The position numbers and the translations under genes are program-made. From contig JAZJZE010000005.1 of NCBI GenBank assembly GCA_040390065.1, positions 32,001-96,000 of the forward strand: a stretch of DNA of 64,000 nt. Direction: 5' to 3'. The notes below the pieces were generated by a model, which saw only the letters and a program-made list of their open reading frames with translations, was not told the origin of the DNA and did no database searches. Below are positions 41,184 to 56,790 of the stretch, piece by piece; the stretch's first letter is position 1, and every line of letters starts with the position of its first letter. This stretch comes from a bacterium (GTDB lineage Archaea > Thermoplasmatota > E2 > JACPAO01 > JAHFTW01).

Positions 41184-42554
41184 ATGATCACCTTCGGTCC
41201 CGCCGGAATCCCGCTGTCGTGCAAGGGGCGCACGGTGCGGGACGGCATCATCTACACGCGCAACCTGGAACTGGATGCGATGGAAGTCCAGTTCGTGCGC
41301 GGCATCCGCATGACGGAGGAGGAGGCCAAGAAGGTCCGCGAGACGGCCCAGCAAGCGGGCGTCGAGCTCCACGTCAAGGCTCCGTATTACATCAACCTGG
41401 CCGGCGACGAGGCCAACGTCGAGATGTCCTTCCAGAAGATCCTGGCGACCGGGAAACTGGGCCATGAGATGGGCGCCCAGACGGTCGTCTTCCACCCCGG
41501 CTTCTACGGCGAATTGTCCAAGGAGGAGACGATGGCGCGCATCGTCAAGAACGTGCGCGAACTGCGCAACGTCTTCGTGCGCGAGGCCTGGACGCCGCGG
41601 CTTGGCATCGAGGTCATGGGCAAGCGCAACGTCTTCGGCAGCCTCGAGGAAGTGATCGAGGTCTGCCAGAAGGTGAAGGGCGTCGTCCCCGTCGTCGACT
41701 TTGCGCACATCCACGCGCGCGGCAACGGCATCCTGCAGAATCCCGAGGACTTCGTGGCCGTCTTCGAGAAACTGGCCCCCCTCAAGCTCGACCACTACCT
41801 CCTGCACTTCACGGGCATCCACTACGAGAACGGCAACGCCCGCTACCGCCTGCCCATCAAGAAGGGCGACCTCAAGTTCGAGCCGCTGGTCGACGTGCTC
41901 CTCGACGCCAACATGTCGGCCACCATCATCTCGACCTCGCCCATCCTCGAGCACGACGCGATGTACATGAACATCGTCTTCGACCGCGTCAAGGAACGCC
42001 GCGACGCGCGCGTCGCCAAGGAACTCCAGGACGCGATCAAGCAGGAAGAGCAGGCCAAGGTCGCGGACGAGCGCCGCAAGAAGGCCGACGAGGAGCGCGC
42101 CCGCAAGGCCGACGAGGAGCAGAAGCGCCGCGCCGAGAAGGAAGCCGAGAAGCTGCGCCGCGAAGAGGAGAAGCGCCTCGCCTTGGAGGAAGAGGCTGCC
42201 CGCAAGGCCGCCATCCCCGATTGCGCTGCCGTCACCAAATCCGGCACCCCGTGCAAGAAGAAGGCGGACGGCCGCGGCCGCTTCTGCATCCAGCACAAGG
42301 GCTGGCGCGGCATGACGATCGATGAGCTTCCGGAGAACCAGAAGCCGCGCGTCAAGCAGTCCACGGCGAAGGTCCGCCAGCAGGTGCAGGTGGACGAGTT
42401 CAAGCTCTGGAAGAAGGACGAGCGCTTCGTCTTCATGAAGGAGAAGAAGGAAGGCTACGCCGCCATCTTCAAGGTCCCCGACGGCAAGGAGGTGCGCTAC
42501 AACAAGCAGCGCATCCCCATCCTGCGCGCCGCCGGCGAAGCCGACGAGGAGTGA
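41184..42554 (+). CDS. Endonuclease IV-like (AP endonuclease family 2 TIM barrel) with long C-terminal extension
   Basis: FGPAGIP, MEVQFVRG, APYYINL, VFHPGFY, EVMGK..FGSLEE, DFAHIHAR, HFTGI; then an EK/R coiled coil and CAAVTKSGTPC...FCIQH. Confidence 0.85.
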   Translation: MITFGPAGIPLSCKGRTVRDGIIYTRNLELDAMEVQFVRGIRMTEEEAKKVRETAQQAGVELHVKAPYYINLAGDEANVEMSFQKILATGKLGHEMGAQTVVFHPGFYGELSKEETMARIVKNVRELRNVFVREAWTPRLGIEVMGKRNVFGSLEEVIEVCQKVKGVVPVVDFAHIHARGNGILQNPEDFVAVFEKLAPLKLDHYLLHFTGIHYENGNARYRLPIKKGDLKFEPLVDVLLDANMSATIISTSPILEHDAMYMNIVFDRVKERRDARVAKELQDAIKQEEQAKVADERRKKADEERARKADEEQKRRAEKEAEKLRREEEKRLALEEEAARKAAIPDCAAVTKSGTPCKKKADGRGRFCIQHKGWRGMTIDELPENQKPRVKQSTAKVRQQVQVDEFKLWKKDERFVFMKEKKEGYAAIFKVPDGKEVRYNKQRIPILRAAGEADEE

Positions 42555-42588
42555 GTCGCACGCACGCGGGCACCGAGGGCTGGACGGC

Positions 42589-43134
42589 ATGAAGTTCACG
42601 GAGCCCCTCGACTACATCGAGGCCGCCGCCCGCAAGACGCTCGAGCTCAACAAGGAGGATCTCGAGGCCTTCGTGAAGGTCCTGCAGCCGGCCCGCCGCG
42701 TCTTCCTCTACGGTCGCGGCCGTTCGGGCTTCGTGGCGCGGGCGTTTGCCGTCCGCCTCATGCACCTCGGCTACCAGACGTACGTCATCGGCGAGACCAT
42801 CACGGCGCCGGTCAAGCGCGACGACGTCGTCATCCTCGTGTCCGGCTCCGGCACGACGTACCCAGTCGTCATGACGGCCGAGCTCGGCCGCCGCCAGGGC
42901 GCGACGGTCGTGGCCATCACGGCGCAGCCCGAATCCGACATCGCGCGCTTGGCCCACGTGGTCGTCCCCATCATCCCGCCCGAAGGCAACGGCGACCGCG
43001 CCCGGCTTGCCCCCCTCGGCACGCTGTTCGAGACGAGCGCATGGCTGTTCTTCGACGCCGTGGTCGCCTTGCTGATGGAGACGCTTGGGGAGACGGAGGC
43101 GTCGATGATGCGACGCCATGCTACGCTCGAGTAG
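42589..43134 (+). CDS. hxlB: 6-phospho-3-hexuloisomerase (SIS)
   Basis: GRGRSG..ARAFAVRLMHLG, VIGETIT, SGSGTT, APLGTLFE, RHATLE. Confidence 0.9.
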   Translation: MKFTEPLDYIEAAARKTLELNKEDLEAFVKVLQPARRVFLYGRGRSGFVARAFAVRLMHLGYQTYVIGETITAPVKRDDVVILVSGSGTTYPVVMTAELGRRQGATVVAITAQPESDIARLAHVVVPIIPPEGNGDRARLAPLGTLFETSAWLFFDAVVALLMETLGETEASMMRRHATLE

Positions 43135-43340
43135 GCCGAAGGCCACGAGAGCGTGTTTGGCGTCGCAGCGATGCGAAGCGAGCGGACCGGCCGGCCCGCA
43201 AGGGCCGGGCGGGGAGAAGGCATGCGACGCTCGAGTGAGCAGGGCGAACGAGCGCGCTTGCTTTCGCAGCGATGCGTAGCGAGCGGACCCGGCCGGCCCG
43301 CAAGGGCCGGGCGGGGCGACGCCGTGCTCCGGTGGAATGA
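43111..43340 (+). repeat. Tandem array: hxlB last 8 codons x3, separated by two ~52-nt hairpin repeats
   Basis: TCGCAGCGATGCG(A/T)AGCGAGCGGACC(C)GGCCGGCCCGCAAGGGCCGGGCGGGG at 43163-43214 and 43264-43316. Confidence 0.85.
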
Positions 43341-43343
43341 TTC

Positions 43344-46300
43344 TCAGCGCTTGCGCCCGGCGGCCACGATGGCAGCCACGAGGATGGCGGCCAGGACGAT
43401 GGCGCCAGCCCCGATGGCCCACATTGCAACTCCGGATGTACCGGGGGAGGACACGTCACGGGCGCGCGCAGCGGAAGCGACCGTCGTCGGGCCTTGGAAC
43501 ACCTGTGTCGCGCCCGAGCCTTCGTGGGCCTTCATGCTGATAGTGTAGCCGCCGGGCGTCGCATAGCGGTGGGTCGCGGCGCCCTGCGACGTCTCCGCTG
43601 GCGTGCCATCGCCGAAGTCCCAATCGTAGGAGGTCGCGGAGACGGTCGGCGTGACGCTGACGAGACCGTCGTCGCCCTGCACGACCGTGAAGCCCTCGAA
43701 TGTCCCTGACGGACCCGATCCGGGCGAGATTGGCGTGGACGTCGGCGAGGCGGCGTCCGTGACCTGGATCTCGACTTGGTCCATTGCGCTCACGAGGCCG
43801 TCGTCGACGACGAGACTGAAGCGGTACGTCCCTGGAGCCACGGCGGCAAACGACGCGGTCTGCTGCTGTGCATCCGACAGCACGGCGGATGGTCCGGCGA
43901 CCTGCATCCACTGATACGTGAGGAGGTCGCCGTCGGGGTCGGACGATGCGGTGCCATCCAGCATCACCGTCGCTCCGACGCTGGCCGGCTCGGGGACGAG
44001 GATGGTCGCCGTGGGCGCCGCGTTCGTCGGGCGCACCGTCACCATCACGCCGTCGAGGGCCCGCGCCGAGCCGTCGCTTGCCGCGACCTCGAAATACAGC
44101 GTCGCGACCGGGCCGTCGAAGGAGGGCGCCTTGAAACTCAACGTCGGCGTGTCGGCTCCGGACAGGGCTGCGGCTGGCCCGGCGGTCTGCGTCCACGACC
44201 AGAGGACAGCGCCGCTTGCGCCGGTCGCGGTGGCTTGCAGTGACACATCCGATCCCGTGGCCGTCGTCCGGTCAGCGCCGGCGCTCACCGCCAGCAGTTG
44301 GCCGCTTCCTCCCAGATCCCCGCCGGAGCCGGCGGATCCACCGCTCGCGCCGCCCGAGCCCTGCGAGCCGCCGGATGTGGGCGGGTTCTGCGGCGGCGGC
44401 GCGCCTCCCGTTGGGGCGACGACTGAGATGGCCTTGCACGTCGGGCTGCCCTCGGCGCCGTATGAGTCGATGGCGGACAGGCAGACGGTCGCCTGCCCGA
44501 CCGTCCCGAAGATGTGGTCTGGCGCGTGCGACGTGGACTTGTAGCCGTCCCCGAAGTTCCAGTTCCATGCCACGACGGAGTCGCCCGGGTCCGAGTCCGT
44601 GGAGCTGTCGACGAATGTGACGCTGTTGCCGACCACGACGGTCGTGGGGGAGGCGGAGAATCGGGCAACGGGCGGCACGTCGGGGGCGACGTTGATGGTC
44701 ACCGTGGCGCACGGACTGTCCAGGGGGTCGGGGTCTGTCACCTTGTAGGTGAACGTCACGGGTCCCGTGAACGAGGCCGGCGCGGCGTAGATGAAGTGGC
44801 CATCGGCTGCGATGGGCGGCGTGCCGACGAGGCTGCCCGTCGTCGGGAACACGCAGACGCTTGGGACCACGGTGTCGCCGTCGGTGTCGCCGTCGTTTGC
44901 GAGCACGGGCGAAAGACCTCGGGCCAGCGTGCTCATGGAGTAGCCCGACGCCGCGTTGTACGTGTCGTCCCCGGCGTAGGGTTTGATGATCGTGCAGGCG
45001 ACGGTGAGCGTCACTTGCACCGGCGCACTGTATGTCGGCGGGGTCAGGCCGGTCGGGCTGTTGTCGTCGAGGAGTTCGTACTTGAACGAGTCCGTGCCAC
45101 AGAAGTGCACGTTCGGGATGTACCTGAACGAGCCATCCGACGAGATGACGGGGCTTGTGCCGGTGCCGTCGCCCTTGAGGAGCTGACCGGACGACGGACC
45201 CGTGAACACGACGGCGTTGTCCTGGCTGATGTGCGATGGCACGGGCACGGGGCTCGCGAGGTCGTCGCGGTCCTTCTCGCCAGAGCTGCACTTGAGGCCG
45301 AACGGGGGCGACCCAGTGCACGTGGCGGGCACGCCGAAGTAGGATGGCGTCACGGCTGCGCAACTCGTCTGGGGCAGCGGGCTGCAGTCCTCGTCGACGT
45401 TGTAGGCATCGGCGGTCGCGATGGGAACGTCCGCGATGCACGTGACCTGGATCGTGGCCTTGGCCGCCGTGGCGCTGAACGTCGACCCGTCCTTCACCTT
45501 GAACGTGAATGCATCGTCGTTGCCGACGGAGAAGGCCGGACCGTTGCAGTAGTCGTCGTTCGGCTGGTACTTGACGTCGTACGTCGGCGACGCGGCCGCA
45601 GTCACCGTGTTGCAACTCGGCGGGTTGCCCTTGAGAACGCCGCGGGTCGGGTTGGATGCGATGCAGAAGTACATGGGGTCGCCGGGATCCGCGTCGGTTC
45701 CAGCTAGCGTGATGGTCGCGTACGGAGAAGCGCAGCCGGATGCCGGCGTCGTGCTGCAGTCCTCGTCGACGGTGTACGTCGCCGGGGTCGCGACGGGAGC
45801 CTGGTTGGCCGGGGGTGCGGCGCCGCGGTAGTACCGCACGGCCACGCTGTTGAGGGTCCAATCCGACGACGCGCTCGAGTCCAGCCAGGTGAGGCCGCTG
45901 TTGCCCGTATTGTCCTGCAGGCCACCGATGGCGTGGTGGTTGTCGTCCACGGGCGCGACGGATTGGTAGTGCACCTCGATGGAGTCGTCCACCTCGAACA
46001 GCTTGATCTCCCAAGAACCGGGACTCGACGAGGATGGACTGTAGTACGGCACGTTGTTCATTTCGTAGATGAAGACGCGGTTGGGCGACGTGCCGACCAC
46101 TTGGTAGTAGGTGCAAACGCAGCTCCCAGAATTCAAGTCCGTCCAGTACGCGGACACGAAGTTGTAGGGGCCGCAGCACGAGGACGGGATGGTCTGCGGC
46201 GTGTAGCTCGTGCAAGTGCCCGCGTCAAAGCACAGGTAGCCGTTCGAGGCCAGTTCGACCTTCTGGACTGCGTTGCCACAGAAATCGAATTCCCATGCCC

Positions 46301-46547
46301 CGGGAAGCGGGGGCGGCAGCGCCGACAGGCTCACCGACGTCGAGACGTCATCGCCCGCGGGGCCCGCTGTGCCCGTCGTCGAGATGTCGACGAAATCGTA
46401 GGCGGGGCCGCCGCCTGAGTTGCTGTCGATGAAATAGTACCCGCAGCCATCGGGACCCCCCGTGTTGGCCGATGCGGGGTGGACCAGCAACAGGAGAGTC
46501 GTGGCCGCCGCGGCCGCTAGCAAGAACCCAAGAATGCGCCCAACCAT
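43344..46547 (-). CDS. Large surface adhesin-like protein with Ig-like (Big_9/tandem-95) and PKD domains and C-terminal TM
   Basis: Signal peptide; NQAPVA..YTVDED, GTDSFKY, WNFGDG, SSDPDGDLLTYQWMQVAGP motifs. Confidence 0.85.
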   Translation of the reverse strand: MVGRILGFLLAAAAATTLLLLVHPASANTGGPDGCGYYFIDSNSGGGPAYDFVDISTTGTAGPAGDDVSTSVSLSALPPPLPGAWEFDFCGNAVQKVELASNGYLCFDAGTCTSYTPQTIPSSCCGPYNFVSAYWTDLNSGSCVCTYYQVVGTSPNRVFIYEMNNVPYYSPSSSSPGSWEIKLFEVDDSIEVHYQSVAPVDDNHHAIGGLQDNTGNSGLTWLDSSASSDWTLNSVAVRYYRGAAPPANQAPVATPATYTVDEDCSTTPASGCASPYATITLAGTDADPGDPMYFCIASNPTRGVLKGNPPSCNTVTAAASPTYDVKYQPNDDYCNGPAFSVGNDDAFTFKVKDGSTFSATAAKATIQVTCIADVPIATADAYNVDEDCSPLPQTSCAAVTPSYFGVPATCTGSPPFGLKCSSGEKDRDDLASPVPVPSHISQDNAVVFTGPSSGQLLKGDGTGTSPVISSDGSFRYIPNVHFCGTDSFKYELLDDNSPTGLTPPTYSAPVQVTLTVACTIIKPYAGDDTYNAASGYSMSTLARGLSPVLANDGDTDGDTVVPSVCVFPTTGSLVGTPPIAADGHFIYAAPASFTGPVTFTYKVTDPDPLDSPCATVTINVAPDVPPVARFSASPTTVVVGNSVTFVDSSTDSDPGDSVVAWNWNFGDGYKSTSHAPDHIFGTVGQATVCLSAIDSYGAEGSPTCKAISVVAPTGGAPPPQNPPTSGGSQGSGGASGGSAGSGGDLGGSGQLLAVSAGADRTTATGSDVSLQATATGASGAVLWSWTQTAGPAAALSGADTPTLSFKAPSFDGPVATLYFEVAASDGSARALDGVMVTVRPTNAAPTATILVPEPASVGATVMLDGTASSDPDGDLLTYQWMQVAGPSAVLSDAQQQTASFAAVAPGTYRFSLVVDDGLVSAMDQVEIQVTDAASPTSTPISPGSGPSGTFEGFTVVQGDDGLVSVTPTVSATSYDWDFGDGTPAETSQGAATHRYATPGGYTISMKAHEGSGATQVFQGPTTVASAARARDVSSPGTSGVAMWAIGAGAIVLAAILVAAIVAAGRKR

Positions 46548-46733
46548 CCAATCGACCACCGCCGGGAGGCGGACAGAAGGGCGACCGGCTTCTGCGCCTT
46601 AACGGCGTCGCCGCGGTCCCCAATCATCTACAGCCTATCACGGCAATTCGCCCAGGAAGGGCGCCGGAAAGCCCAGCGAACCGCACGTTCTTGCGCGTCC
46701 TGCTGCGAAAACACGCGTGGACGCTGGGCGAGG

Positions 46734-46799
46734 TCAGAACGGCCGCTTCGGCAAACCCTTCGCCGCATCGAAGTTGACCCAGACCTTCACGCCGCACCA
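46734..46799 (-). repeat. Duplicate of the last 22 codons (including stop) of the thyX-like gene
   Basis: 63/64 identity between 46736-46799 and 46882-46945; the one difference is synonymous (Val GTC/GTG) and the stop is TGA vs TAG. Confidence 0.95.
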
Positions 46800-46879
46800 C
46801 GACCTGCAGTCAGGTCGATCAACACGGGTGGGACCTCCGGCTTTCCAAGCCTGCGGCCCCACGCCACTGCTTGAGGTCT

Positions 46880-48649
46880 CTAGAACGGCCGCTTCGGCAA
46901 ACCCTTCGCCGCATCGAAGTTCACCCAGACCTTCACGCCGCACCATTTGTCCCCTTCCGGGCAGCAGGCCACAGGGTCGTCCTGCTTGTCGCGCGGTTGG
47001 CGGGGCGCCACGAAGCTGCACGGCGGGCCCAGCCAACGCGTGAGTTCGGGGTGAGCCGCCTGCGCCTGGCGAAGCTCGGCGATGGACGCGTCGAAGATCT
47101 CCTTCTGCGCGTTGAAGCACGTTCGCAGCCGCCACTTGTGGATGAACGCCAACAGATCGCCGGATTGGGTGAACGTGATGTTCGTCGCATTCGGGAGCAA
47201 GTAGGTGCAGTCGTCCGCCGGGATGCCCCGTTCACGCAGCTTGGCGATGGCAGCCCAAAGCGCTGCGATGGCGTCGTCGTAGACGCGGCGGCCGTCGGCG
47301 TCCGCAGCGACAATCTCGGGCACGTGCACGTCGGGCTTGGCCGAGAGACAGCGCGTCAAGACGGGGCGCGTACCTGGGGTCATGCGGTGGCGCTGGTCCT
47401 GCGCGTAGGCCGTCAGGCTGAGGCGCTTGCGGAACGTGTAGTGCACGTGGTGCAGGGCGCGAAGGACCGGGCTGTGGTCCCACGTGTTGAGGGTGTCCGC
47501 CCACGCGGCGTTTCGCGCGGGGTCCATGACTTCGCGCAGGAGTTCGGCGTCCGGGAGGGCGGAACCCGTCGTCTCGCGGACCGCCTGCAGGACCACGGCC
47601 GCGGCGTTGGGCGTCGCGGCCAAGAGAACAGCGGGGGTTCCGGCGGGGATGCCGTCGGCTGGCTGCGACGAGACCGTGGCGCCCGACAACATCGTCTCGA
47701 CGTGCTCTGCGCGTGGCCGCGTCTGCTCCTCGATCTGGCCGACGAACTGCGGGTCGACGCGGCGGATCTCCTCGACCATCTGGTCCACGATGGTGCGCGC
47801 CTCGCGGGCGGCGTCGCCGGCCTCGCACATGCGGATGTAGCGCAGCAGCACGATGCCGGACACCGTGTGGTAAAGTTGCGTCGCGGCCGCGATGGGGATG
47901 ACGTAGCGCGCCATCTCCTGCGACTTCTTCTCCGCCTCCTTGTGGATGGTCTTGTCCGACTGGCCCTTGATGCGGCCAATCGCCGTCATCGTGCGGATGT
48001 TGGCATCCACGAGGCTGTCGCGCAGAGTGTGGTAGGCGTCCCAGGCCGTGCGGACGGCGCCCTCGTAGGCGGCGCGGGCTTGCGGATCTGCGCGCACCGT
48101 CGCAGGGATGTGCACCTCGGCGCGCTTCATCTCGACGTAGCGCTGGCTCTGCTGCTCCGAGTTGTAGAACGTGTGGTTATGGAGGAAGGACTCGACGACG
48201 TTGCGGCTGACGCCCTCCAACGCGAAGACGAAGGTCGGGTGCTGGAACGGCGTGTGGTGGCCGGCCTCGTAGATGCCGTGCGCGATGCGGGCGTCGCCGG
48301 CCGAGCGTTGGCGCGCCAAGTCGGCAAATGCGGCGAGCGCCGTGCGCACATCCAGACTGGACACCTTGAGCGACACGCGTTCAACAATCTGCACGCGCTT
48401 GTCGTGCGGCGTGTCGAGGCGACCAATCTCGTCGAGTTCCGCCTTGAACGACGGCAGCGCGTCCAAGAGCGACTTGCGCTCGCGTTCGCCCTTCGAGTCG
48501 AGGCGGCCGACGAAGACGAAGTCCTGCGCGTAGCAGGTGCGCGCCGACGCCACGGACAATTCGTAGGGACGCGCCGTGTGGGCGACCAGGCGGACGCGGG
48601 GCTCCGCGACGAGGATGTCGCGCGCCCCCGTCGATTCCAGCTGGGCCAC
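46880..48649 (-). CDS. thyX: FAD-dependent thymidylate synthase with two tandem ThyX domains
   Basis: Domain 1 GHHTPFQH..F.LEGVSR...QQSQRYV...MARYVIP; domain 2 AQDQRHR...YLLPNA...LRTCFNAQKEI. Confidence 0.85.
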   Translation of the reverse strand: MAQLESTGARDILVAEPRVRLVAHTARPYELSVASARTCYAQDFVFVGRLDSKGERERKSLLDALPSFKAELDEIGRLDTPHDKRVQIVERVSLKVSSLDVRTALAAFADLARQRSAGDARIAHGIYEAGHHTPFQHPTFVFALEGVSRNVVESFLHNHTFYNSEQQSQRYVEMKRAEVHIPATVRADPQARAAYEGAVRTAWDAYHTLRDSLVDANIRTMTAIGRIKGQSDKTIHKEAEKKSQEMARYVIPIAAATQLYHTVSGIVLLRYIRMCEAGDAAREARTIVDQMVEEIRRVDPQFVGQIEEQTRPRAEHVETMLSGATVSSQPADGIPAGTPAVLLAATPNAAAVVLQAVRETTGSALPDAELLREVMDPARNAAWADTLNTWDHSPVLRALHHVHYTFRKRLSLTAYAQDQRHRMTPGTRPVLTRCLSAKPDVHVPEIVAADADGRRVYDDAIAALWAAIAKLRERGIPADDCTYLLPNATNITFTQSGDLLAFIHKWRLRTCFNAQKEIFDASIAELRQAQAAHPELTRWLGPPCSFVAPRQPRDKQDDPVACCPEGDKWCGVKVWVNFDAAKGLPKRPF

Positions 48650-48721
48650 GGATTCACCACCCGCTGCGGGGGTTTGAACCCTTCTTGACCGGAGGCGGCC
48701 CCTAGGGGAGTCCGACCTTCG

Positions 48722-49696
48722 TCACGGCACGTACTTGACGGAGTCTTCCAAATCGAGGACGAAAAAGTAGGACCCGACGTCCGTCGTGAATGCCGCCATC
48801 CCCGTGAAATTCCCTGGGGCGACGAGGCCGAAAGTCTCCAAGCCCGTACGTGTAGTCACCATCTGCGCGATCCCCGAACCGTCCGTGTACGCCACCCGCA
48901 CGAACGGCGTAAGGTCCTTGGCATTCCGGGGCGTAAACAGGCCAACCGTCGTGACACCTGCAGGGGGGCCCTCCGGTTGTGGCGTGCCCGTCAGCCTGAC
49001 GAGCGGTACCGCACCTGCGTCGACTCGTAGGCCGGGGAGCGGGGCATTCACGATATCAATCGTCGCGTTCACGACGTTCACCCCGTGCCGGACCAGATGC
49101 CCTGCAATGGGGGAGCTGTCCGTGACGACCATGAGTGGAAAGATTGGCTGGGCAATGCCCGCGACCTTGACCCCGGTGGGAAGGACAATCGGGGCCCCGA
49201 CCAGTCCCAGACCGGCGGGGCCGATGGTTTCGTTCCGGTACGTCCGCGGGCGGTCGGTGCCATTGGCGCTGTAGGATTCCAGCGTCAAGGTGCTAAGGAC
49301 GACGTCCCGACACTGATAGAAGTCGAACATGACCGGGACAAGGTTCTGCGGCGTACTAGAGGGGATTTCGTACTCGGGGGGAACCGCTTGACGCAACTTT
49401 CCCCGGTCGACGTCAAACGACCCGCGAACGATTCCGCAGGCGCTGGCGTAGACGAAGGTTACGTTCGATATCGCAACCTTGGTGGCATGGGGCTCTTGCA
49501 GGCCCCCGGATGCGGAAACACTAGTTGCCCCAGGCTGTACGCCGGCTTGAGTCGGCCCCGTCCCGTTCGTGCATCCGGCGATCACCAAGACGACGACGAG
49601 CCAAGCGTGTGCCCGAAACACGGGAGCACGTCTCACGCTAGCGGAAGCCATCAAAGCCTTCCTTGCAGGGGCAGATGCGTCGGTCTCGTGGCCCAT
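48722..49696 (-). CDS. Lipoprotein, paralog of 37539..38408 (start uncertain)
   Basis: IAGC lipobox; atypical codon usage. Confidence 0.7.
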   Translation of the reverse strand: MGHETDASAPARKALMASASVRRAPVFRAHAWLVVVLVIAGCTNGTGPTQAGVQPGATSVSASGGLQEPHATKVAISNVTFVYASACGIVRGSFDVDRGKLRQAVPPEYEIPSSTPQNLVPVMFDFYQCRDVVLSTLTLESYSANGTDRPRTYRNETIGPAGLGLVGAPIVLPTGVKVAGIAQPIFPLMVVTDSSPIAGHLVRHGVNVVNATIDIVNAPLPGLRVDAGAVPLVRLTGTPQPEGPPAGVTTVGLFTPRNAKDLTPFVRVAYTDGSGIAQMVTTRTGLETFGLVAPGNFTGMAAFTTDVGSYFFVLDLEDSVKYVP

Positions 49697-49711
49697 CGCC
49701 CGAACCCAACA

Positions 49712-50524
49712 TCAGGCATGATAGCAGGCGCGCGCCGACGCGGAAGCAATTGCAGGCGCCGGCAGCTGCAGTTCGGGGCCTGGGGACGGTAGCAGCGGGT
49801 GATCGCTTCCAGTGGCGGTCGCTCCAGTGTCGCAAATGGGGACGACCGGCGCGTCGCGGAACTTGTTGACCAAGACGTCCTGAATGTCGCCCCCGCAGCT
49901 TGCCGTCGGCGAGCCGTGCGTGCAGTCCACGGGAGAACTTGCCGTTCCGGAGGACTTCGTGCCAGCGACCAAGTAGTAGTAGTTGTGGCCGCCCGTATTG
50001 AAGCCGACTCCGAAGTCCGAGGCGTAGCTGGAACCAAGGCACAGTTCATACCCGCTCGTCGCAAAATGGTCGGCGCAGGTCATGCTTGACGAAGCAACAG
50101 CAACATTGCATACCAATCGTAGTTGTGCCGGATCGTTGGCCAGAGAACAGGAAACGGTGTTGTGGTTCTCCGTAGCCCCACCCCCGCTGTGAATGACCTG
50201 TCGGTTGAGGTTCATCGCGGGCAGCGCGCCGCCGAGCGTGATTGGCCCATACTCCTGGTGGCGGGCCGGCACGCTGACCGGCGCGGAGAGGATGGTGACG
50301 CCGCCGTCATCGACGCACTCGCGGCTGAGGGTTCCTGCAGGAAAATCTACGTTGAACAGCGTTGCGCCCGTGCTGTCCGGCGCCAGGCTGAAGGCCGGCG
50401 TATCGAATGATTCGAAGCCGGAGACAGTGCAAACGTCGCCGCTTGCGTTGGCGGGAGGTGCCAACCATGGAGCGGCAAGAAAAAGCAAGCAAACCAGACT
50501 GGTCGTGCGAAGTCGCAAATTCAT
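49712..50524 (-). CDS. Secreted Cys-rich hypothetical protein
   Basis: Signal peptide (PANA cleavage-like), about 10 Cys; lower GC. Confidence 0.65.
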   Translation of the reverse strand: MNLRLRTTSLVCLLFLAAPWLAPPANASGDVCTVSGFESFDTPAFSLAPDSTGATLFNVDFPAGTLSRECVDDGGVTILSAPVSVPARHQEYGPITLGGALPAMNLNRQVIHSGGGATENHNTVSCSLANDPAQLRLVCNVAVASSSMTCADHFATSGYELCLGSSYASDFGVGFNTGGHNYYYLVAGTKSSGTASSPVDCTHGSPTASCGGDIQDVLVNKFRDAPVVPICDTGATATGSDHPLLPSPGPELQLPAPAIASASARACYHA

Positions 50525-50678
50525 GGTATCGTTTTCCTGGAGCCATGCGGGCGCGCGTTGCGCTCACCCGGACCGGCACGGCCCAAATGACCCGACGACC
50601 TTGGACCTTCTCACAATAGTTCTCTCAGGACCCGGCCGTCGCAGGCCCAATACGAAGGCATGCCCCCCGCCTCCACGC

Positions 50679-50685
50679 TTAAATA
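50679..50685 (+). promoter_or_regulatory. TATA box of the aIF-1A/RIO1/KH operon
   Basis: TTAAATA ~25 nt upstream of GTG 50709 (leaderless spacing). Confidence 0.6.
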
Positions 50686-50708
50686 AACCAAGCGTGTGAG
50701 AAGAGTCC

Positions 50709-51119
50709 GTGGTCAAAGAAGAGGGCGAGGACGACGAGGAAATCCTGGCGGAGGACCTCGCAGAAGAGCTCGCCGCAAAGGAGCCTGTCGCGGTCCCCGT
50801 CGAGGGCATGGAGTCCGACGAGGCCGTCAACCGCTACCGCATGCCGGACAACCGCAACCGCGAGATGTTCGCCATCGCGGACGAACTCATGGGCGCCTCG
50901 AAACTGCGCGTCATGTGCGAGGACGGCAAGTCCCGCATGGCCCGCATCCCGGGCAAGATGAAGCGCCGCATGTGGATCAAGCCCGGCGACCTCGTCATCG
51001 TGAAGCCGTGGGACTTCCAGGACGAGAAGGCCGACGTCAAGTACCGCTACGTGCGCACGCAGGCCGTCAACCTGAGCCGGCGCAAGAAGATTCCTGAGCT
51101 TCTCGATGTCGGGTTCTGA
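50709..51119 (+). CDS. eif1a: Translation initiation factor aIF-1A
   Basis: MGASKLRVMCEDGKSRMARIPGKMKRRMWIKPGDLVIVKPWDFQDEKADV.YRY. Confidence 0.95.
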   Translation: MVKEEGEDDEEILAEDLAEELAAKEPVAVPVEGMESDEAVNRYRMPDNRNREMFAIADELMGASKLRVMCEDGKSRMARIPGKMKRRMWIKPGDLVIVKPWDFQDEKADVKYRYVRTQAVNLSRRKKIPELLDVGF

Positions 51120-52053
51120 GGCCATCGTCATGGGCGACGACGTCGAGGAAGCAACCCCTCTTCTGTCGCTCGAGGACGACGAGATGCGGCAGGAGGCCTC
51201 CAACGACGAGTGGGCCTACCGGCAAGCCGAACGGCTCGTCGGCGGGATGCCCGGACGCACGGGCGGCGCCGACCGGAGGACGGAGGGCGAGGTGTTCGAC
51301 CACCCGACCCTCATGGTTCTGCACCGCCTCCTCACGCATGGCACCCTGAAGTCGCTCGACTTTCCCATCTCGACCGGCAAGGAAGCCAACGTCTTCCGCG
51401 GGACGACGCCGCGTGGCGCATTCGTCGCGGTCAAGATCTACCGCATCAACACGGCGACGTTCAAGCACGTGCAGCAATACATCGAGGGCGACGAGCGCTT
51501 CGAGGGACGCACGGGCGACCGCCGCGGCCTCGTGCACGCCTGGTGCCAGAAGGAGCACCGCAATCTCCTTCGCCTACGCGACGCGGGGGTCGCCGTCCCC
51601 GAATCCCAGAAGGCCATCGGCAACGTCCTCGTCATGGAATACCTCGGCACCAAGGAAGGGCCTTGGCCGCGCCTCAAGGAAATGACGCCTATCGGCGACG
51701 CCGAGCGCATCTACAAGGACCTCGTCGAGGACTACATCCGCGCCTACAACGTGGCCGACTTGATCCACGCCGACCTGTCCGAGTACAACATCATGCTCGA
51801 GGGCACGGACGACCCCGCGACGTCGTGGCGGCCACGCATGATCGACGTCGGCCAGGCTGTCCTCAAGAACCACCCGATGGCCAAGCAATTCCTGGAACGC
51901 GACGTCAAGAACCTCACCGCCTTCTTCCGTCGCCAGGGCGTCGACGCGAAACCAGAGGACGTAATCGCCCGCCTCGACCACCAGCGCCGCCAGGAACGCG
52001 AACGCCCCGTCAAGATCCGACCGGCCTTGGGCGACGACGAGGAGGAACTTTGA
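51106..52053 (+). CDS. rio1: RIO1 serine/threonine kinase
   Basis: ISTGKEANVF, AVKIYR, LVMEYLG, IHADLSEYNIM, IDVGQAV. Confidence 0.95.
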   Translation: MSGSEAIVMGDDVEEATPLLSLEDDEMRQEASNDEWAYRQAERLVGGMPGRTGGADRRTEGEVFDHPTLMVLHRLLTHGTLKSLDFPISTGKEANVFRGTTPRGAFVAVKIYRINTATFKHVQQYIEGDERFEGRTGDRRGLVHAWCQKEHRNLLRLRDAGVAVPESQKAIGNVLVMEYLGTKEGPWPRLKEMTPIGDAERIYKDLVEDYIRAYNVADLIHADLSEYNIMLEGTDDPATSWRPRMIDVGQAVLKNHPMAKQFLERDVKNLTAFFRRQGVDAKPEDVIARLDHQRRQERERPVKIRPALGDDEEEL

Positions 52054-52099
52054 CGTCCCCTCGCTCGCGTCGCTCGCCCTTCCCCCAGGGGAGGGTCTT

Positions 52100-52645
52100 G
52101 TGATCTACCTCCGCGTGCCAAACGACCGCATCGGTGCCATCATCGGCCCCGGCGGCGAGACGCGCCGCGCCCTCATGGAGCGCAGCGGCATCCAGATCGA
52201 GGTCGACACGAACGAGAACGAGGTCGCCCTGCACGACGAGACGCCGGGGGCGGACCCCGTCATGCTCCTCAAGATGCGCGACATCGTGAAGGCCATCGCG
52301 CGCGGCTTCAGCCCCGAGCACGCAAGCCGCCTGTTCTCCGACGACTGCTACTTCGAACTCCTGGACTTCCACGACTACGTCGGCAAGCACAAGGGCCACG
52401 TGCGCCGCGTCACGGCGCGCCTCATCGGCTCGGAGGGCAAGACGCGCCGCATCATCGAGGAGCAGACGCAGTGCGACCTCGCCATCTACGGCCACACCGT
52501 CGGCATCATCGGCGACCTCGAGGACCTTGCCAACGCCAAGCAGGCCGTCGACATGATTCTGCGCGGCGCCGAGCACGCGTCGGTGTACCGCTTCCTGGAA
52601 AACACGCGGCGCCGGGCCAGGCGCGCGAACGCGGAGACCTGGTAG
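52100..52645 (+). CDS. KH-domain RNA-processing protein (Dim2/PNO1-like)
   Basis: RIGAIIGPGG, AIARGFSPE, RLIGSEGKTR, GAEHASVY; conserved archaeal gene order. Confidence 0.92.
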   Translation: MIYLRVPNDRIGAIIGPGGETRRALMERSGIQIEVDTNENEVALHDETPGADPVMLLKMRDIVKAIARGFSPEHASRLFSDDCYFELLDFHDYVGKHKGHVRRVTARLIGSEGKTRRIIEEQTQCDLAIYGHTVGIIGDLEDLANAKQAVDMILRGAEHASVYRFLENTRRRARRANAETW

Positions 52646-52668
52646 CCCCAGATCGGTGCGGCGGTCGC

Positions 52669-52892
52669 CCCGGGACACAGATTCCACGGAATCTCTCTGC
52701 GTCATGCCCGGGCTGGCTTCGGCCACACCCAAATGGCCGCCCTCAGAATTTCCCAGATGCACTTCCGGCGGCTTCGGGAGCCTGCGCGGGCCGGCTGAAG
52801 GGCATCTGCGGAATTCTGGCGCGGCCCTGGGCAACAGGCCGAAGGCCACTGGAGCGCGCAACCCAATGCATCTGCGGAATCTGTGTCCCGGG
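52669..52892. mobile_element. ~224-bp MITE-like nested palindrome
   Basis: Perfect 17-bp terminal IR CCCGGGACACAGATTCC (52669-52685 / 52876-52892); inner IR CAGAATTTCCCAGATGC / GCATCTGCGGAATTCTG; mobility is inferred. Confidence 0.65.
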
Positions 52893-52965
52893 CGGCGGGG
52901 CGCTGATGGCGTGCGCGAGGCTGCCCCCCCGTGCCCTTTAAGGGCCCGCCCCCAGTCGCGTCGAC

Positions 52966-54330
52966 GTGGAGCCCGTCCCCGCCGCGCCCGCCGAACCGCC
53001 GAAGGACAACCCGCACGACCCGCCAACGGCGAAGGGGCCCCCCGAACCGGTGACGCCCGGCGAGATGCGCGCCACCGGCGTCCTGTTTGCCATCTTCGCG
53101 GTGACCATCGCGCTCTCCGTCTTGTTCGCGGCGCCCTTCCACCGCGCCGGACTGCAGGCCTTCGCCAACCCGGAGGACACGTCGAACGCCTTCGTGTACC
53201 TCGCCATGATCCTGGCATTCACCTTCGTCATCCTGTGGATCGCCAAGCGCGGCAAGAAGAACATCATCCGCGCCATCATCCTCTTCGCTGTGGGCTCCAC
53301 CATCGCGTATGTGGTCTACCCGCTCGTCGCCCTCGCCCTGCCGGCTGGGCCCATCGAGCCGTACATGGGTTTCCTGGTCATTCCGCTCGTGGCGGCCCTT
53401 GCCGTGTCCATCGGGTCGGTGCTCCTTCTGTACTTCCACCCGGAGTGGTACGTCATCGACACCGTCGGCCTCCTGGTCGCAGCCGGCTCGGCCGCCATCT
53501 TCGGCATCAGCTTCGGCATTCTGCCCGTCATCGTCCTGCTGTCCATGCTGGCCATCTACGACGCGATCGCCGTGTACCGCACGCGCCACATGCTGGCCCT
53601 GGCTGACACCGTCATCGACCTGCGCCTTCCCGTCCTGCTTGTCATCCCCAAGCACGCCGGCTACAAATTCAAGGACGAGGCGAACAAGTTCAAGCAGGCC
53701 TCCGCCGAGAACAAGGGCGAACGCGAAGCCATGTTCATGGGACTCGGCGACCTCGTGATGCCGACGATGCTCGTCGTGTCGGCGCTCACGTTCCTCGGCG
53801 CCCTCACGGCCGTGCCCCTGGCCGCGACGGTCGAACCTTGGGACGATGCCCACGGGCTGCCCGTGGACATGACAGCCGCCGCCACCCCCGGCCACCCGAT
53901 CAACGTCCAGTACACGATCTCCAGTCCGTCCCCTGCCGCCTCGTCCTGGAATTGGACGCTCACCTGGGCCGACGGCACCCACGACGCCTACGGCCACGGC
54001 CTGCCCGCGTTCGTCACACGCGAGTTCCAGGAGCCCGGCGGAGTCGTCGCCAACATCACCGTCCAAGACGCCTCGGGTGCCAAGGGCTCGGTCGAACTCG
54101 TGGCCGCCGTGGACTACGCCCACGCCACGTTCTTCACCCCATTGTCGACCCTGTTCGCCAACCCGCCCGCCCTCGGCGCCGCCATCGGCACCCTTGCCGG
54201 CTTCGGGGCCCTCATGGTCTTCGTCCTGCGCGGTAATCCGCAGGCCGGCCTGCCGCTCCTGAACGGGGGCGCCCTCGCCGGCTTCCTGCTCGGCCTGTAC
54301 CAGGCCACGGGGTCGTTCAAGTTCTGGTGA
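52966..54330 (+). CDS. Presenilin/signal peptide peptidase-like intramembrane aspartyl protease (A22) with an inserted soluble domain
   Basis: YDAIAVY, MGLGDL, PQAGLPLLN motifs. Confidence 0.92.
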   Translation: MEPVPAAPAEPPKDNPHDPPTAKGPPEPVTPGEMRATGVLFAIFAVTIALSVLFAAPFHRAGLQAFANPEDTSNAFVYLAMILAFTFVILWIAKRGKKNIIRAIILFAVGSTIAYVVYPLVALALPAGPIEPYMGFLVIPLVAALAVSIGSVLLLYFHPEWYVIDTVGLLVAAGSAAIFGISFGILPVIVLLSMLAIYDAIAVYRTRHMLALADTVIDLRLPVLLVIPKHAGYKFKDEANKFKQASAENKGEREAMFMGLGDLVMPTMLVVSALTFLGALTAVPLAATVEPWDDAHGLPVDMTAAATPGHPINVQYTISSPSPAASSWNWTLTWADGTHDAYGHGLPAFVTREFQEPGGVVANITVQDASGAKGSVELVAAVDYAHATFFTPLSTLFANPPALGAAIGTLAGFGALMVFVLRGNPQAGLPLLNGGALAGFLLGLYQATGSFKFW

Positions 54331-54398
54331 GTTTCCCTCCTGGAATCACAGAAGAAAACCTTTAGCCATGCAGGGGCTCAGGAGATTCAGGGTAGCCC

Positions 54399-54686
54399 AT
54401 GGACGCCGAGGTCACTTCTTTCATCAATCTCCCCGTCTACACGCACGGCGGCCGCTACGTCGGCGTCGTGCAGAACGTCATCCTCGACCTCCCCAGCCGC
54501 CGCATCGGCAGCCTCCTCCTCACCCGCACCTCCAGCAAACTCATCGAGGGCGGCCACAACGTTGCCGTCCCGTACCGCTGGGTCGCCTCCATCGGCGACA
54601 TCGTCATCCTCAGCCACTTCCCGGACAAGGTCGTCGCCCAGCCCAAGACGGCCGAGGAAGCGGAAGAAGAGCCGGTTGCAGCGTAG
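54399..54686 (+). CDS. PRC-barrel domain protein
   Basis: VYTHGGRYVGVVQNVILD...VPYRWVASIGDIVIL. Confidence 0.9.
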   Translation: MDAEVTSFINLPVYTHGGRYVGVVQNVILDLPSRRIGSLLLTRTSSKLIEGGHNVAVPYRWVASIGDIVILSHFPDKVVAQPKTAEEAEEEPVAA

Positions 54687-54689
54687 GCG

Positions 54690-55001
54690 ATGGCCAGCTC
54701 GAAGGCGGGCGCCGCCTTCTCCCGCAAGGTCCACGCCTTCGTCCGAAAAGTCCCCAAAGGTCGCGTCACCACCTACGGCGATGTCGCCTACTCCATCGGC
54801 CAACCGGGAGCCGCCCGCGCCGTCGGCCACGTCATGCGCAACACGCCCGACGACTCCCCGACGCCGTGCCATCGCGTCGTTCGCGCCGGCGGGCACGTCG
54901 TGCCCGTGCGGGGGAATGCGCTCGTTGCAAGGCTGCGGGCAGAGGGCGTCACGGTGAAGTCGGGGCAGGTTGTCGGCTTTGCCAGGCTGCGTTGGCCGTA
55001 G
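54690..55001 (+). CDS. MGMT-family (O6-alkylguanine alkyltransferase) single-domain protein
   Basis: VPKGRVTTYGDVA, ARAVG, PCHRVV. Confidence 0.9.
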   Translation: MASSKAGAAFSRKVHAFVRKVPKGRVTTYGDVAYSIGQPGAARAVGHVMRNTPDDSPTPCHRVVRAGGHVVPVRGNALVARLRAEGVTVKSGQVVGFARLRWP

Positions 55002-55026
55002 CGTCGCTTCGCGCCGCTGCCGACTG

Positions 55027-55233
55027 AACACAGATTCCACCGATACCCTAGACTGCACATTTCAGTGACCCTCGGCCTGTTTCCCAGTGGCTGCCCCAGA
55101 ATTCCCCAGATGCACTTCAGCCGAGGCCCCGGCCTCCACGGAAAGTTCATCTGCGAAATTCTGGGGGGTGCAGTTCGAGTCAGGGCGAAGGCTCCTCTGG
55201 TACGCCCCAGCAAAACTCTGTGAAATCTGTGTT
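55027..55233. mobile_element. ~207-bp MITE-like nested palindrome, same family as 52669..52892
   Basis: Terminal AACACAGATTCCAC / GTGAAATCTGTGTT; inner CCCCAGAATTCCCCAGATGCACTT / AAGTTCATCTGCGAAATTCTGGGG. Confidence 0.65.
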
Positions 55234-55249
55234 TGGCCGAGAGCGGTCT

Positions 55250-55315
55250 CTAGTTCTTCAACGGCATCTTCTCGCAAGCGGCTTCCAGGATATCCATGCC
55301 CGCATCGATCTTCGC
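55250..55315 (-). repeat. Recoded duplicate of the last 22 codons (including stop) of the aminotransferase gene
   Basis: Encodes AKIDAGMDILEAACEKMPLKN* vs gene ...PLRN*; 8 differences, 7 synonymous and 1 R/K. Confidence 0.95.
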
Positions 55316-55485
55316 AGAGTCCCTTGCGACCCAATCTGGTACGCAACCGTGGTCTGTGCAAATCGGGCCAGATTCCAGCCTAATTCATCTGGGGAATTCT
55401 GGGGTTAGCCGTTTTCTGGACGGGATTTCACGCCCGCTTGGACCGTTAGGCCGCTGCGAAATCTGTGTCTGCCCGAGAGCCGCCA

Positions 55486-56652
55486 CTAGTTCCTCAAAGG
55501 CATTTTTTCGCATGCGGCTTCGAGAATGTCCATGCCCGCATCGATCTTCGCAACACTGCAGGCATAGCTGAATCGCAAGTGCCCTTCGCCAAGGCGACCG
55601 AAGGCCGAACCCGGGCTGCAGATGAGACCCTTCGCAGCCAAGTTGAGCGCCAACTCCTCGCTCGGGATGTCGAAGTCATACTTGGGGAAGGCGTAGAACG
55701 CTCCGCCAGGCTTCTGCATCTTGAGGCCACGCATCTTCTGCAGACGCTTCGTGATGCGGTCTCGGCGCTTGCGGAACTCGGCCAGCATGTTGTCCGCCTG
55801 CGTCTGCGGGCCTTCGAGGGCGGCCACACACGCCCACTGGATGGGTGTGGGCGTGCAGGCGACGGTGTAGTAGTGCATCGTCTCGATGGCCTTCACGTAC
55901 TCGCGCTTCGTCGCGATGGCCCCGAGCCGCCAGCCCGTCAGGGCGTAGGTCTTGGAGAACGAATTGACCCAGATGACGTTGTCCATGTGGCTGAGGAAAC
56001 TATGGTGCGGCGCGTCGTAGGAGAGGAAGTCGTACACCTCGTCGGCGACGACCATGATGTCCTTGTCCTCGGCGACTTCGCAGACGGCGCGCACGGCGGC
56101 CTTGTCCATGCACGCGCCCGTCGGGTTCGACGGCGTGTTTATGATGAGGAGCTTCGTCCTCGGCGTGATCTTGGCCTGGATCTCGTCGACGTCCGGCTGG
56201 TACTTGTTCTCCGCCGTCAGGCTGTACGGGATAGGGAAGCCTCCGCACAGGCGCGCCTGGCTTGGATAGAGGACGAAGCCTGGGTCGGGGACGAGGACCT
56301 CGTCGCCATGGTCGACGAACGTGTGGTTCACGGTCATGAGGGCCTGGGTGGCCCCGGCTGTGATGATGATGTTCTGCGCCGAGACGTTCTCGCCGCGGTA
56401 GTTCTTGATGCGCGTGGCGACGGCTTCGCGAAGCTGCGGCAGCCCAAGGCTCGGGCCGTAGTGGTTCTTGCCTGCCGCCACGGCGTCCGTGAGGGCCTTG
56501 GCGATGTGGGGGGCCGGCTCGAAGTCCGGTTCGCCAAGCCCCATGTTGATGGAGTCCTTGCCGGCCAGCTCGAACATCTTGCGAATGCCGCTCATCTCGA
56601 TGCCTAGGAGGCGCCGGGCCACGAGGCTCTGGCCCGAGCGGGAGACGGCCAC
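55486..56652 (-). CDS. Class I/II PLP-dependent (aspartate-type) aminotransferase
   Basis: GLGEPDF, INTPSNPTG, ADEVY, SFSKTYALTGWRLG, GAFY, LRFSYA; start chosen from TATA spacing. Confidence 0.92.
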   Translation of the reverse strand: MAVSRSGQSLVARRLLGIEMSGIRKMFELAGKDSINMGLGEPDFEPAPHIAKALTDAVAAGKNHYGPSLGLPQLREAVATRIKNYRGENVSAQNIIITAGATQALMTVNHTFVDHGDEVLVPDPGFVLYPSQARLCGGFPIPYSLTAENKYQPDVDEIQAKITPRTKLLIINTPSNPTGACMDKAAVRAVCEVAEDKDIMVVADEVYDFLSYDAPHHSFLSHMDNVIWVNSFSKTYALTGWRLGAIATKREYVKAIETMHYYTVACTPTPIQWACVAALEGPQTQADNMLAEFRKRRDRITKRLQKMRGLKMQKPGGAFYAFPKYDFDIPSEELALNLAAKGLICSPGSAFGRLGEGHLRFSYACSVAKIDAGMDILEAACEKMPLRN

Positions 56653-56790
56653 GAGCCCGGCCAGAAGGAGGACATAGAAAAGGACTCCAGGCGGAGTAAA
56701 CCCCGGCCCGAGGCGCATGATCCCCGGGCCGGGGCCTCCGCACGAGGGCGGAGAGGTGGGGGTTGAGGGGAAGAGGGGGCCTTCCGACGC

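Follow-up and report, generated by a model that had tools for sequence, protein, structure and literature searches.

Small structured repeats lie between working and displaced gene ends in a Thermoplasmatota-like archaeon

Orphan copies of gene tails at three loci

We analysed a 64,000-nucleotide (nt) stretch of DNA (the window; contig C5:32001–96000) from G000, a metagenome-assembled genome (MAG) of 2.68 Mb in 50 contigs that is 89% complete, has 0.3% contamination and contains 67% G+C. Its small-subunit (SSU) gene fits the archaeal model along the full length, and we refer to the host as a Thermoplasmatota-like archaeon. Three genes in the window, hxlB, thyX and a gene for a class I/II aminotransferase, are each followed by one or two orphan copies of their own last codons, with a small insert between the working end and the orphan. 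The features of the three loci, in window positions, are as follows.

42589–43134, + strand: hxlB (6-phospho-3-hexuloisomerase), intact; open reading frame (ORF) list, TIGR03127 at 179.6 bits (cut-off 160)
43111–43134, + strand: hxlB working tail T1, RRHATLE, stop TAG
43135–43214, + strand: hxlB insert 1, 80 nt, structured (fold z −2.85), ending ...GGACCGGCCGGCCCGCAAGGGCCGGGCGGGG (hairpin with a GCAA loop) and abutting T2
43215–43238, + strand: hxlB orphan tail T2, RRHATLE, stop TGA
43239–43316, + strand: hxlB insert 2, 78 nt, same family as insert 1 (96% identical to it over 53 nt; fold z −4.15)
43317–43340, + strand: hxlB orphan tail T3, RRRAPVE and a stop, the most decayed copy
46880–48649, − strand: thyX ORF, 589 amino acids (aa), Thy1 domain with a C-terminal extension; TIGR02170 at 109.7 bits (cut-off 87.9)
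46945–46880, − strand: thyX working tail T1, stop TAG
46800–46879, − strand: thyX insert, 80 nt, main-family sub-type ...GTGGGGCC-loop-GGTCCCAC CCGTGTTGATCGACCTGACTGCAGGTCG, last base abutting T2 (fold z −3.36)
46734–46799, − strand: thyX orphan tail T2, 22 codons, one silent difference, stop TGA
55486–56718, − strand: class I/II aminotransferase; Aminotran_1_2
55551–55486, − strand: aminotransferase working tail T1, ..EKMPLRN and a stop
55316–55485, − strand: aminotransferase insert, 170 nt, outside the main family (fold z +1.51)
55250–55315, − strand: aminotransferase orphan tail T2, 22 codons, ..EKMPLKN and a stop

The differences between working and orphan tails are almost entirely silent. 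In hxlB, T1 and T2 differ at six nt, four of them in sense codons and all synonymous (including CGA/AGA and CGC/AGG) and two turning TAG into TGA. The three differences in thyX amount to a silent GTG/GTC exchange and the same TAG-to-TGA change, and seven of the eight in the aminotransferase are silent third-position changes, the eighth being AGG/AAG (R/K). An earlier note on this DNA had described the three orphan tails under these gene names, with every difference silent except one R/K when the third hxlB copy is set aside; the sequences and the TIGR03127, TIGR02170 and Aminotran_1_2 matches bear out both statements. Its description of the inserts as palindromic held for hxlB and thyX, where the inserts, together with a full-length repeat copy described below, are more stable than their shuffles (z −2.9 to −4.2), and failed for the aminotransferase insert, the first 150 nt of which are not more structured than shuffles (z +1.51). 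Rfam 15 covariance models gave no match in 42500–56000 at E ≤ 1. At thyX, the edge of the insert coincides with the point (46800) at which an exact match to contigs of another sample begins.

Most inserts are copies of repeat families with one fixed end

The inserts had been taken for cassettes. Most of them proved instead to be copies of dispersed, structured repeat families with one fixed end. A pattern search for the main family in G000 gave 37 matches, of which 29 are family members. On their 3′ side these copies have a fixed terminus, ...GATCGACCTGTTTGCAGGTCG or a closely similar sequence, and its final 18 nt fold into a 7-bp hairpin, CGACCTG-TTTG-CAGGTCG. With an nhmmer profile built from 13 copies, 20 of the 24 matches in G000 end at the last model position (153), whereas starts are spread over positions 2–4 (13 matches), 10–20 (six), 71–72 (two), 93, 102 and 116; the fixed end is thus the right one, and the left one varies. 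Full-length copies are about 150 nt long (up to about 153 nt) and carry G5/C5-rich hairpins and a left hairpin, GCGAGCGC-N4-GCGCGAGC. One of them lies in the window, and no flanking direct repeat was found around it.

38483–38632 (C5:70483–70632), + strand: full-length main-family copy of about 150 nt; nhmmer match, fold z −3.36

The thyX insert and five other tail inserts share an end module made up of a hairpin (for example GTGGGGCC-loop-GGCCCCAC), a short linker and GATCGACCTGTTTGCAGGTCG. Judged from single folds rather than a structural alignment, the upstream hairpin is kept with differing stems (GUGGGGCC, GCGGGGCC, GUGGUGUC, GUGGCGCC, GCGAUGCC, UUGGGGCC and others). From a MAFFT alignment, RNAalifold retrieved the terminal hairpin alone; a single pair in it covaries, being G-C in 32 sequences and U-A in seven. 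A second family, with the terminus ...GGACCGGCCGGCCCGCAAGGGCCGGGCGGGG, comprises the hxlB inserts; it also separates three tail copies of a gene on contig C43, and its end module recurs at further sites.

A different repeat family of about 80 nt (cgcgagggccgccgg..cctgaaagacc..ggaaagcga..tttccagtc) often stands directly 3′ of the fixed end of the main element, at C9:83194–83283, C9:188933–189022, C17:93666–93755 and at least ten other loci of G000, which suggests composite arrays of small repeats. At C5:299971–300022 the last codons of a gene (GGTCCCCGCAGGGGACCGTAG) themselves form a hairpin, and the insert behind them ends in a diverged copy of that hairpin and a stop codon; some inserts may thus be built from older tail copies.

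Direct repeats begin at the fixed end

Next to 15 of the 29 main-family copies, a direct repeat (scores 17–109) of sequence left of the element begins 0–1 nt past the element's last base. Two of these 15 are repeats of the element itself. The remaining 14 copies have repeat scores of 5–10, which is background, and one further copy has a repeat 643 nt away, upstream. Kilobase-scale repeats that would mark the repeat-less copies as ends of large islands were searched for and none was found. The direct repeats that flank inserts measure 18–115 nt and the inserts 40–165 nt, without any gene. In order, a site consists of the gene body, its working end, a short spacer, the element, the displaced end and the original flank, and the gene stays intact because its whole end, including the stop or start codon, precedes the element.

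The targets are diverse. Besides the tails of protein genes, the repeats cover a gene start (C5:296739–297002), the 3′ parts of tRNA-Asp and tRNA-Met genes, the 5′ part of a tRNA-Ser gene with the DNA upstream of it, and intergenic DNA. The main family stands at unrelated loci in both orientations, and inspection by eye revealed no common motif at the junctions. One truncated left junction (C13:25570) shows possible microhomology. A motif resembling GCG[AC]AGCG directly after stop codons occurred at 13 of 1,948 genes against about six expected, too weak a signal to use.

Duplicated gene ends across the genome

For genome-wide counts we used our own crude gene calls, namely ORFs of at least 90 aa with a G+C content at third codon positions (GC3) of at least 0.78, which yields 1,948 genes covering 78% of the genome. 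A peptide scan of 12,162 ORFs of at least 90 aa, comparing the last 24 aa with the DNA up to 800 nt downstream and requiring at least 9/10 residues to match, identified 26 ORFs with GC3 ≥ 0.78 that have a downstream tail copy. Controls returned none on the opposite strand and none for gene heads against downstream DNA; with upstream DNA as the target, tails gave eight and heads 15. Three matches were rejected as paralogues (C1:19028–19429, C9:438477, where tandem cupredoxin-like genes lie, and C1:3127), and others, removed by eye, as repeat proteins or low-complexity ORFs (GGVHGT repeats on C6, C2:102330 and C1:33033). At C1:19028–19429, two adjacent genes end in a common acidic tail (..EEKPEEKGV.E.EAAAGLG.LFG and a stop) that mimics an orphan tail and that, we presume, resembles the shared C terminus of archaeal ribosomal stalk proteins.

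A frame-blind nucleotide scan found 372 direct repeats (score ≥ 20) at distances of 25–800 nt and 57 at control distances of 5,025–5,800 nt, a 6.5-fold excess. Of the 372, 241 lie within one ORF, 24 cross a gene 3′ end, seven cross a gene 5′ end and 100 lie elsewhere. Dropping the three paralogues and repeats with fewer than 15 coding nt leaves 15 clean gene-tail pairs in G000; hxlB falls below the score threshold. The suspected recurrence across the genome is thereby borne out, in G000 and, as described below, in related species. The restriction to the 3′ ends of housekeeping genes is not, since gene starts, three tRNA genes and intergenic DNA show the same architecture.

Orphan ends were working gene ends until recently

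In the 15 clean pairs, differences number 11, 9 and 50 at codon positions 1, 2 and 3 (248, 250 and 252 sites), that is, 4.4%, 3.6% and 19.8%; in the non-coding parts of the same repeats, 16 of 128 sites differ. The third-position share of 71% exceeds a rough neutral-copy expectation of 50% (binomial p = 2e-4), for short tails and with an approximate codon-position null. That null takes the copies to be identical at birth, constrains the working one only and lets G/C sites mutate faster, which places about 45–50% of changes at third positions. All types of change occur, mostly third-position G/C swaps, which by our reading represent old synonymous divergence in a GC-rich genome and not fresh mutation. 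The recoding extends to punctuation. A stop codon is replaced by another stop in hxlB, thyX, C9:471546, C9:305287 and C1:130412, arginine codons switch between CGN and AGR in hxlB and in the relative G004, and one gene start reads TTG CGC on the native side and ATG AGA on the element side, both encoding M R.

Comparison with relatives, which like all genomes compared here are MAGs (G001 and so on), points the same way. Where the two copies differ, agreements of relatives with the orphan and with the working tail number 35/16 (aminotransferase, eight relatives), 31/23, 24/19, 20/10 (hxlB, nine relatives) and 18/11 in five genes, the relatives used for polarising not being independent of each other. 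At the aminotransferase R/K site all eight relatives have K, as in the orphan, so that the R of the working copy is derived. The working tail of a metagenomic HxlB (L114) that is 86% identical differs from the hxlB orphan T2 at two nt. The orphan tRNA-Met end in G012 has a different but internally paired T-arm, and its C37 variant is shared with the G000 orphan; C at position 37 is presumably not expected in a working tRNA. Because orphans match the tails of relatives at least as well as working tails do, they are best understood as gene ends that functioned until recently, not as decayed local duplicates. The proposal that the orphan tails were once under coding selection is thus supported by both the positional bias and the relatives. 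In arrays, decay rises with distance from the gene (hxlB T3, the third copy on C43 and a fragment at C1:400638), and the copy now in use, together with the stop or start codon and the spacer beside the element, often has a different history.

Surroundings of the three loci

Downstream of hxlB, a convergent gene (43344–46559, − strand) encodes a 1,071-aa protein with PKD, Big_9 and cadherin-like domains. Its stop codon lies 3 nt from T3, the oldest hxlB orphan, and the two genes were therefore nearly abutting before the insertions. In the thyX product, the Thy1 domain covers residues 20–301 only; the other approximately 290 residues, with a Cys- and Trp-rich tail (WCGVKVWVNF..), gave no family match. 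Behind the aminotransferase orphan lies a further repeat.

55040–55249, − strand: resident repeat element downstream of aminotransferase T2, with internal inverted repeats and the motifs cacagatttc and ccccagaatt

The first approximately 30 nt of the aminotransferase insert and its ccccagaatt block resemble this sequence after T2. Copies of the downstream repeat that are 70–77% identical lie at 52675–52902 in the window and at C5:98883–99102 and C1:325702–325928 in G000, and related motifs are visible by eye 3′ of the orthologous gene in G004, G002 and G008.

The architecture recurs in related archaea

The end-element-end architecture is present in at least six related genomes. Flanking repeats accompany 4/9, 4/8 and 8/11 copies in relatives and public MAGs, in sets that overlap in genomes, the last consisting of evaluable exact matches in public MAGs. 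G005 contains a duplicated tail QAWSIGKEWPERLYG (with its stop) with four silent differences, a duplicated tail QGIKFDV (with its stop) with two, and an 18-nt end-element-end-element-end array with identical ends. A 46/46 repeat at a gene start in G006 has ATG and a Shine-Dalgarno-like spacer in the copy on the gene side and GTG in the displaced copy. The architecture also occurs in G016, of another genus, and at tRNA genes in G002 and G012.

The exact 23-mer at the element end occurs 19 times in G000 and 0–3 times in each of 30 relatives. Across 185,579 species, each represented by one genome, a search located it in only 12 stretches, all from archaeal MAGs, ten labelled Thermoplasmatota and two Halobacteriales. 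The latter are the public contigs L097 and L099, labelled 'uncultured Halobacteriales archaeon'; for L099 this label may be a misclassification. The viral contigs of IMG/VR gave no match to a 21-nt element end, and no viral or plasmid parent was found there. Copies of the thyX sub-type are 94–97% identical between G000 and G005 and 90–91% identical at C5:296777–296971, whereas the thyX gene itself is 72% identical in G005; the element has therefore either been exchanged between species or is strongly constrained.

Individual loci are shared patchily. An hxlB orphan is present in one of nine relatives (G010, with three silent changes, as a plain 52-nt tandem unit), and by eye a decayed trace remains in G002. 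The gene at C1:400638 has orphans in two of five relatives, and one more cut by a contig end, that start at about the same codon. The gene at C5:300022 has an orphan in one of five, starting at the same codon position and decayed by a frameshift and a stop. No orphan tail follows the aminotransferase gene in eight relatives or the C5:192395 gene in five. Of 32 gene-genome tests, 4 were thus positive for an orphan of the same gene, whereas in any one genome well below 1% of genes have an orphan, so these loci are either inherited or hot. A metagenome scan with the HxlB protein gave 32 loci, the best 83–86% identical, with no strain-level pair of empty and filled alleles and no orphan tail at any of 22 loci.

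A proposed route of insertion and duplication

Each orphan tail can be read as the outer copy of a long direct repeat (18–115 nt) around a small non-coding insert. We propose that insertion-duplication events bring in the element, often along with the gene end of a donor lineage, a reading whose enzyme and mechanism are conjectural and which we regard as about equally likely to be right or wrong. DNA carrying a gene end, spacer and element, often from a related lineage, would use the gene end to pair with the resident gene; the element would then become joined, by its fixed end, upstream of the resident end, which would be displaced downstream. Repeated events would build end-element-end-element-end arrays in which the oldest and most decayed copy lies furthest from the gene. 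A donor from the same population would leave identical repeats and one from a related lineage allele-like differences. The joining could proceed through a small circle by single crossover, through one-sided homologous combined with illegitimate joining, or through a template switch at a hairpin between diverged chromosome copies.

Spread to unrelated loci needs, in addition, a primary insertion mechanism, for which the fixed 3′ end, the variation in 5′ extent and the variable duplications recall target-primed or template-switch copying. More tentatively, and with the balance of our judgement against it, these repeats might represent a new class of archaeal mobile element that is copied or joined from one fixed end, travels between species with a piece of host gene end as its address, replaces that end while sparing the gene, encodes no enzyme and possibly reaches new sites by SINE-like (short interspersed element) or template-switch copying.

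Several results weigh against the import of donor gene ends by insertion-duplication. Under a looser null in which 65% of changes fall at third positions, the silent-site excess is not significant (p 0.16). Some nine of the 15 pairs carry most of the signal (0/0/8, 0/1/7, 1/0/8 and 1/1/8 at positions 1/2/3 among them), the remaining pairs looking like neutral decay (2/1/1, 3/2/0 and 2/3/4), and the orphan and working agreement counts draw on short tails and non-independent relatives. A crossover gradient of differences along the repeat is absent (mean relative position 0.505, null 0.516, p 0.61). At least seven flanking repeats are 100% identical, which plain target duplication fits as well as or better than an imported end, and because of these identical repeats not every event gives evidence of a donor-derived tail. 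Roughly half of the copies in the family lack a flanking repeat altogether. Tails are also duplicated without a main-family member at the aminotransferase, at hxlB in G010 and at the C5:300022 gene, and more than one process may be at work.

The enzyme searches belong with these points. G000, at 89% completeness, gave no match to RVT_1 (PF00078), Y1_Tnp (PF01797), the TnpB domain or Cas1, and none of its six tyrosine-recombinase (Phage_integrase) genes or two DDE transposases adjoins an element. The earlier note had envisaged a trans-acting system and had suggested looking for a recombinase, HUH nuclease or reverse transcriptase that co-occurs with the inserts. Its remark that no recombinase lies nearby holds, none of the six tyrosine-recombinase genes being in the window; no trans-acting enzyme was identified among the matches in G000, and a classical site-specific integrase fits poorly with many targets and a variable repeat length. 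As a separate observation, two tyrosine-recombinase genes lie adjacent on opposite strands at C5:216451–219186, and six such genes seems many for 2.7 Mb.

Alternative explanations

The best-surviving alternative, possible although we consider it rather unlikely, is duplication of the target in place. Copying anchored at the 3′ end (target-primed reverse transcription, as in SINEs, or a template switch at the terminal hairpin) would double 18–115 nt, and the silent differences would arise later, when recombination with other lineages overwrote one copy and its flank. Such copying would account for the fixed 3′ end and variable 5′ start, for repeats of variable length without a junction target motif (by eye), for the repeats that are 100% identical, for copies at unrelated loci in both orientations and for the possible microhomology at the truncated C13:25570 junction. 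It does not sit easily with the lack of a reverse transcriptase among G000 matches, in a genome 89% complete, or with the absence of an A-tail. Divergence at 19.8% of third positions, against about 4% at positions 1 and 2, implies that the orphan has been neutral for much less time than the copies have been apart. Furthermore, the differences extend to the last codon, the stop or start and the spacer, which later recombination would hardly achieve if it had to end within a short repeat.

We consider it quite unlikely that a site-specific tyrosine recombinase acts in trans to move these repeats as miniature integrative elements, in the manner of genomic islands with replacement 3′ ends. Direct repeats of gene and tRNA ends do flank the inserts, the tRNA-Met repeat beginning in the anticodon stem in both G000 and G012; six Phage_integrase-family genes are present in G000, and the terminal hairpin resembles part of a recombinase core site. 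Against this stand dozens of unrelated targets with no common junction sequence, repeats ranging from 18 to 115 nt, the targeting of gene 5′ ends as well, and the fact that no integrase adjoins any copy.

Very unlikely, in our assessment, is plain tandem duplication by slippage at gene-end hairpins, tolerated because the first copy keeps the gene whole and requiring no mobility. Some loci have this appearance: hxlB in G010 is a simple 52-nt tandem unit, the units at C5:300022 consist of tail, spacer and partial tail, and the aminotransferase units are partly alike past the stop codon. The 6.5-fold excess of close direct repeats (372 versus 57) also speaks for slippage. However, it leaves unexplained the dispersed near-identical element copies within and between species, the end-element-end-flank layouts without a second element after the last copy, and the silent-site excess and gene-like state of the orphans.

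That the orphan is still in use, for instance because some of the population removes the insert and one copy from its RNA or DNA, strikes us as highly improbable. In that case protein-coding selection would still act on both copies. It would suit C1:400638, where only silent changes distinguish the G000 and G001 orphans from one another and from the two working tails, with 5–9 differences per pair over 45 nt (by eye). Yet the copy offsets are mostly not multiples of three, stops, frameshifts or lost stop codons mark C5:135814, L083 in G007, C1:380402 and C9:573263, and no known ribozyme or intron family matched.

Finally, chimeric assembly of strain haplotypes can be given next to no weight: although G000 is a MAG and runs X1–X3 contain contigs 85–95% alike to it, that is, related populations in the same samples, a second assembler's contigs traverse the hxlB and aminotransferase structures with no differences at a depth of about 13, the hxlB copies share no common word long enough for a cycle in the assembly graph, and MAGs from other studies have the identical architecture. 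These contigs, from the Logan assembly (k = 31) of X1, perhaps the source sample of G000, represent a second assembler and not a second sample, and the junction support they give is at contig level. They cover 42500–46765 and 46892–56000 evenly and break only within the 66-nt near-identical thyX repeat, as expected of a repeat longer than k. On the question of chimeric assembly raised in the earlier note, the contigs favour real duplications.

Comparison with known elements

Integrative elements (tyrosine-integrase islands, archaeal proviruses and plasmids) are alike in their direct repeats of gene ends, in keeping the gene whole while displacing its original end, in allele-like differences between the copies and in tRNA targets. 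Here, by contrast, the insert is a gene-less 40–165 nt, targets are many and unrelated and include 5′ ends, repeats are 18–115 nt, one end is fixed and there is no linked integrase. In G000, gene-end direct repeats accompany 15 of the 29 copies, and neither an own or adjacent integrase nor a single target with a fixed crossover was found.

MITEs (miniature inverted-repeat transposable elements), repetitive extragenic palindromic (REP) sequences and REPINs are similarly small, hairpin-rich, multi-copy, mostly intergenic, shared among related species and expanded in one genome. Unlike those of MITEs, the ends described here are not inverted copies of each other, and in place of a short fixed target duplication there are long, variable and often coding repeats. 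The RAYT/Y1 (HUH) transposase of REP/REPIN systems is absent among the matches in G000 (PF01797; genome 89% complete). SINEs and non-LTR retroposons (which lack long terminal repeats) share the exact 3′ end, variable 5′ truncation, target duplication of variable length and structured, RNA-like body; here no reverse transcriptase was detected (PF00078, in an incomplete genome), there is no A-rich tail, the host is archaeal and the repeats are often allelic rather than identical. Diversity-generating retroelements likewise have the closing stretch of a gene repeated just downstream. Here the changes are silent and without a link to adenines, searches found no reverse transcriptase, and the genes affected are numerous and unrelated.

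Campbell-type single-crossover or homology-facilitated illegitimate recombination also leaves a foreign segment between homology copies, with donor-like and recipient-like differences and an intact gene if the fragment holds its end. Such insertion-duplication is known mainly from laboratory constructs and transformation experiments. In the portions of the literature accessible to our search, natural, recurrent tiny elements with a fixed junction were not found described. Nor did a full-text search return a description of the end-element-end architecture, which is absent from the available parts of PMC6009581 and PMC2884548. None of the element classes compared fits the mechanism that the features imply, in which one end is fixed, the duplications are long and variable and there is no linked enzyme.

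Discussion

We regard the finding as real, unusual and wider than first seen, and best filed as small non-autonomous mobile elements with long repeats resembling attachment (att) sites and with gene-end replacement. It points to an undescribed way of inserting DNA beside genes without breaking them. For annotation, the practical consequence is that, where such repeats are present, adjoining orphan tails, orphan starts and incomplete tRNA genes should be treated neither as genes nor as assembly errors. If the proposed reading is right, uncultured archaea carry tiny elements that insert harmlessly beside essential and tRNA genes and leave dated 'fossil' gene ends behind. The elements would mark recombination breakpoints in MAGs, and the stacked fossils would form a natural archive, showing how lineages exchanged DNA and at what time each allele was in use.

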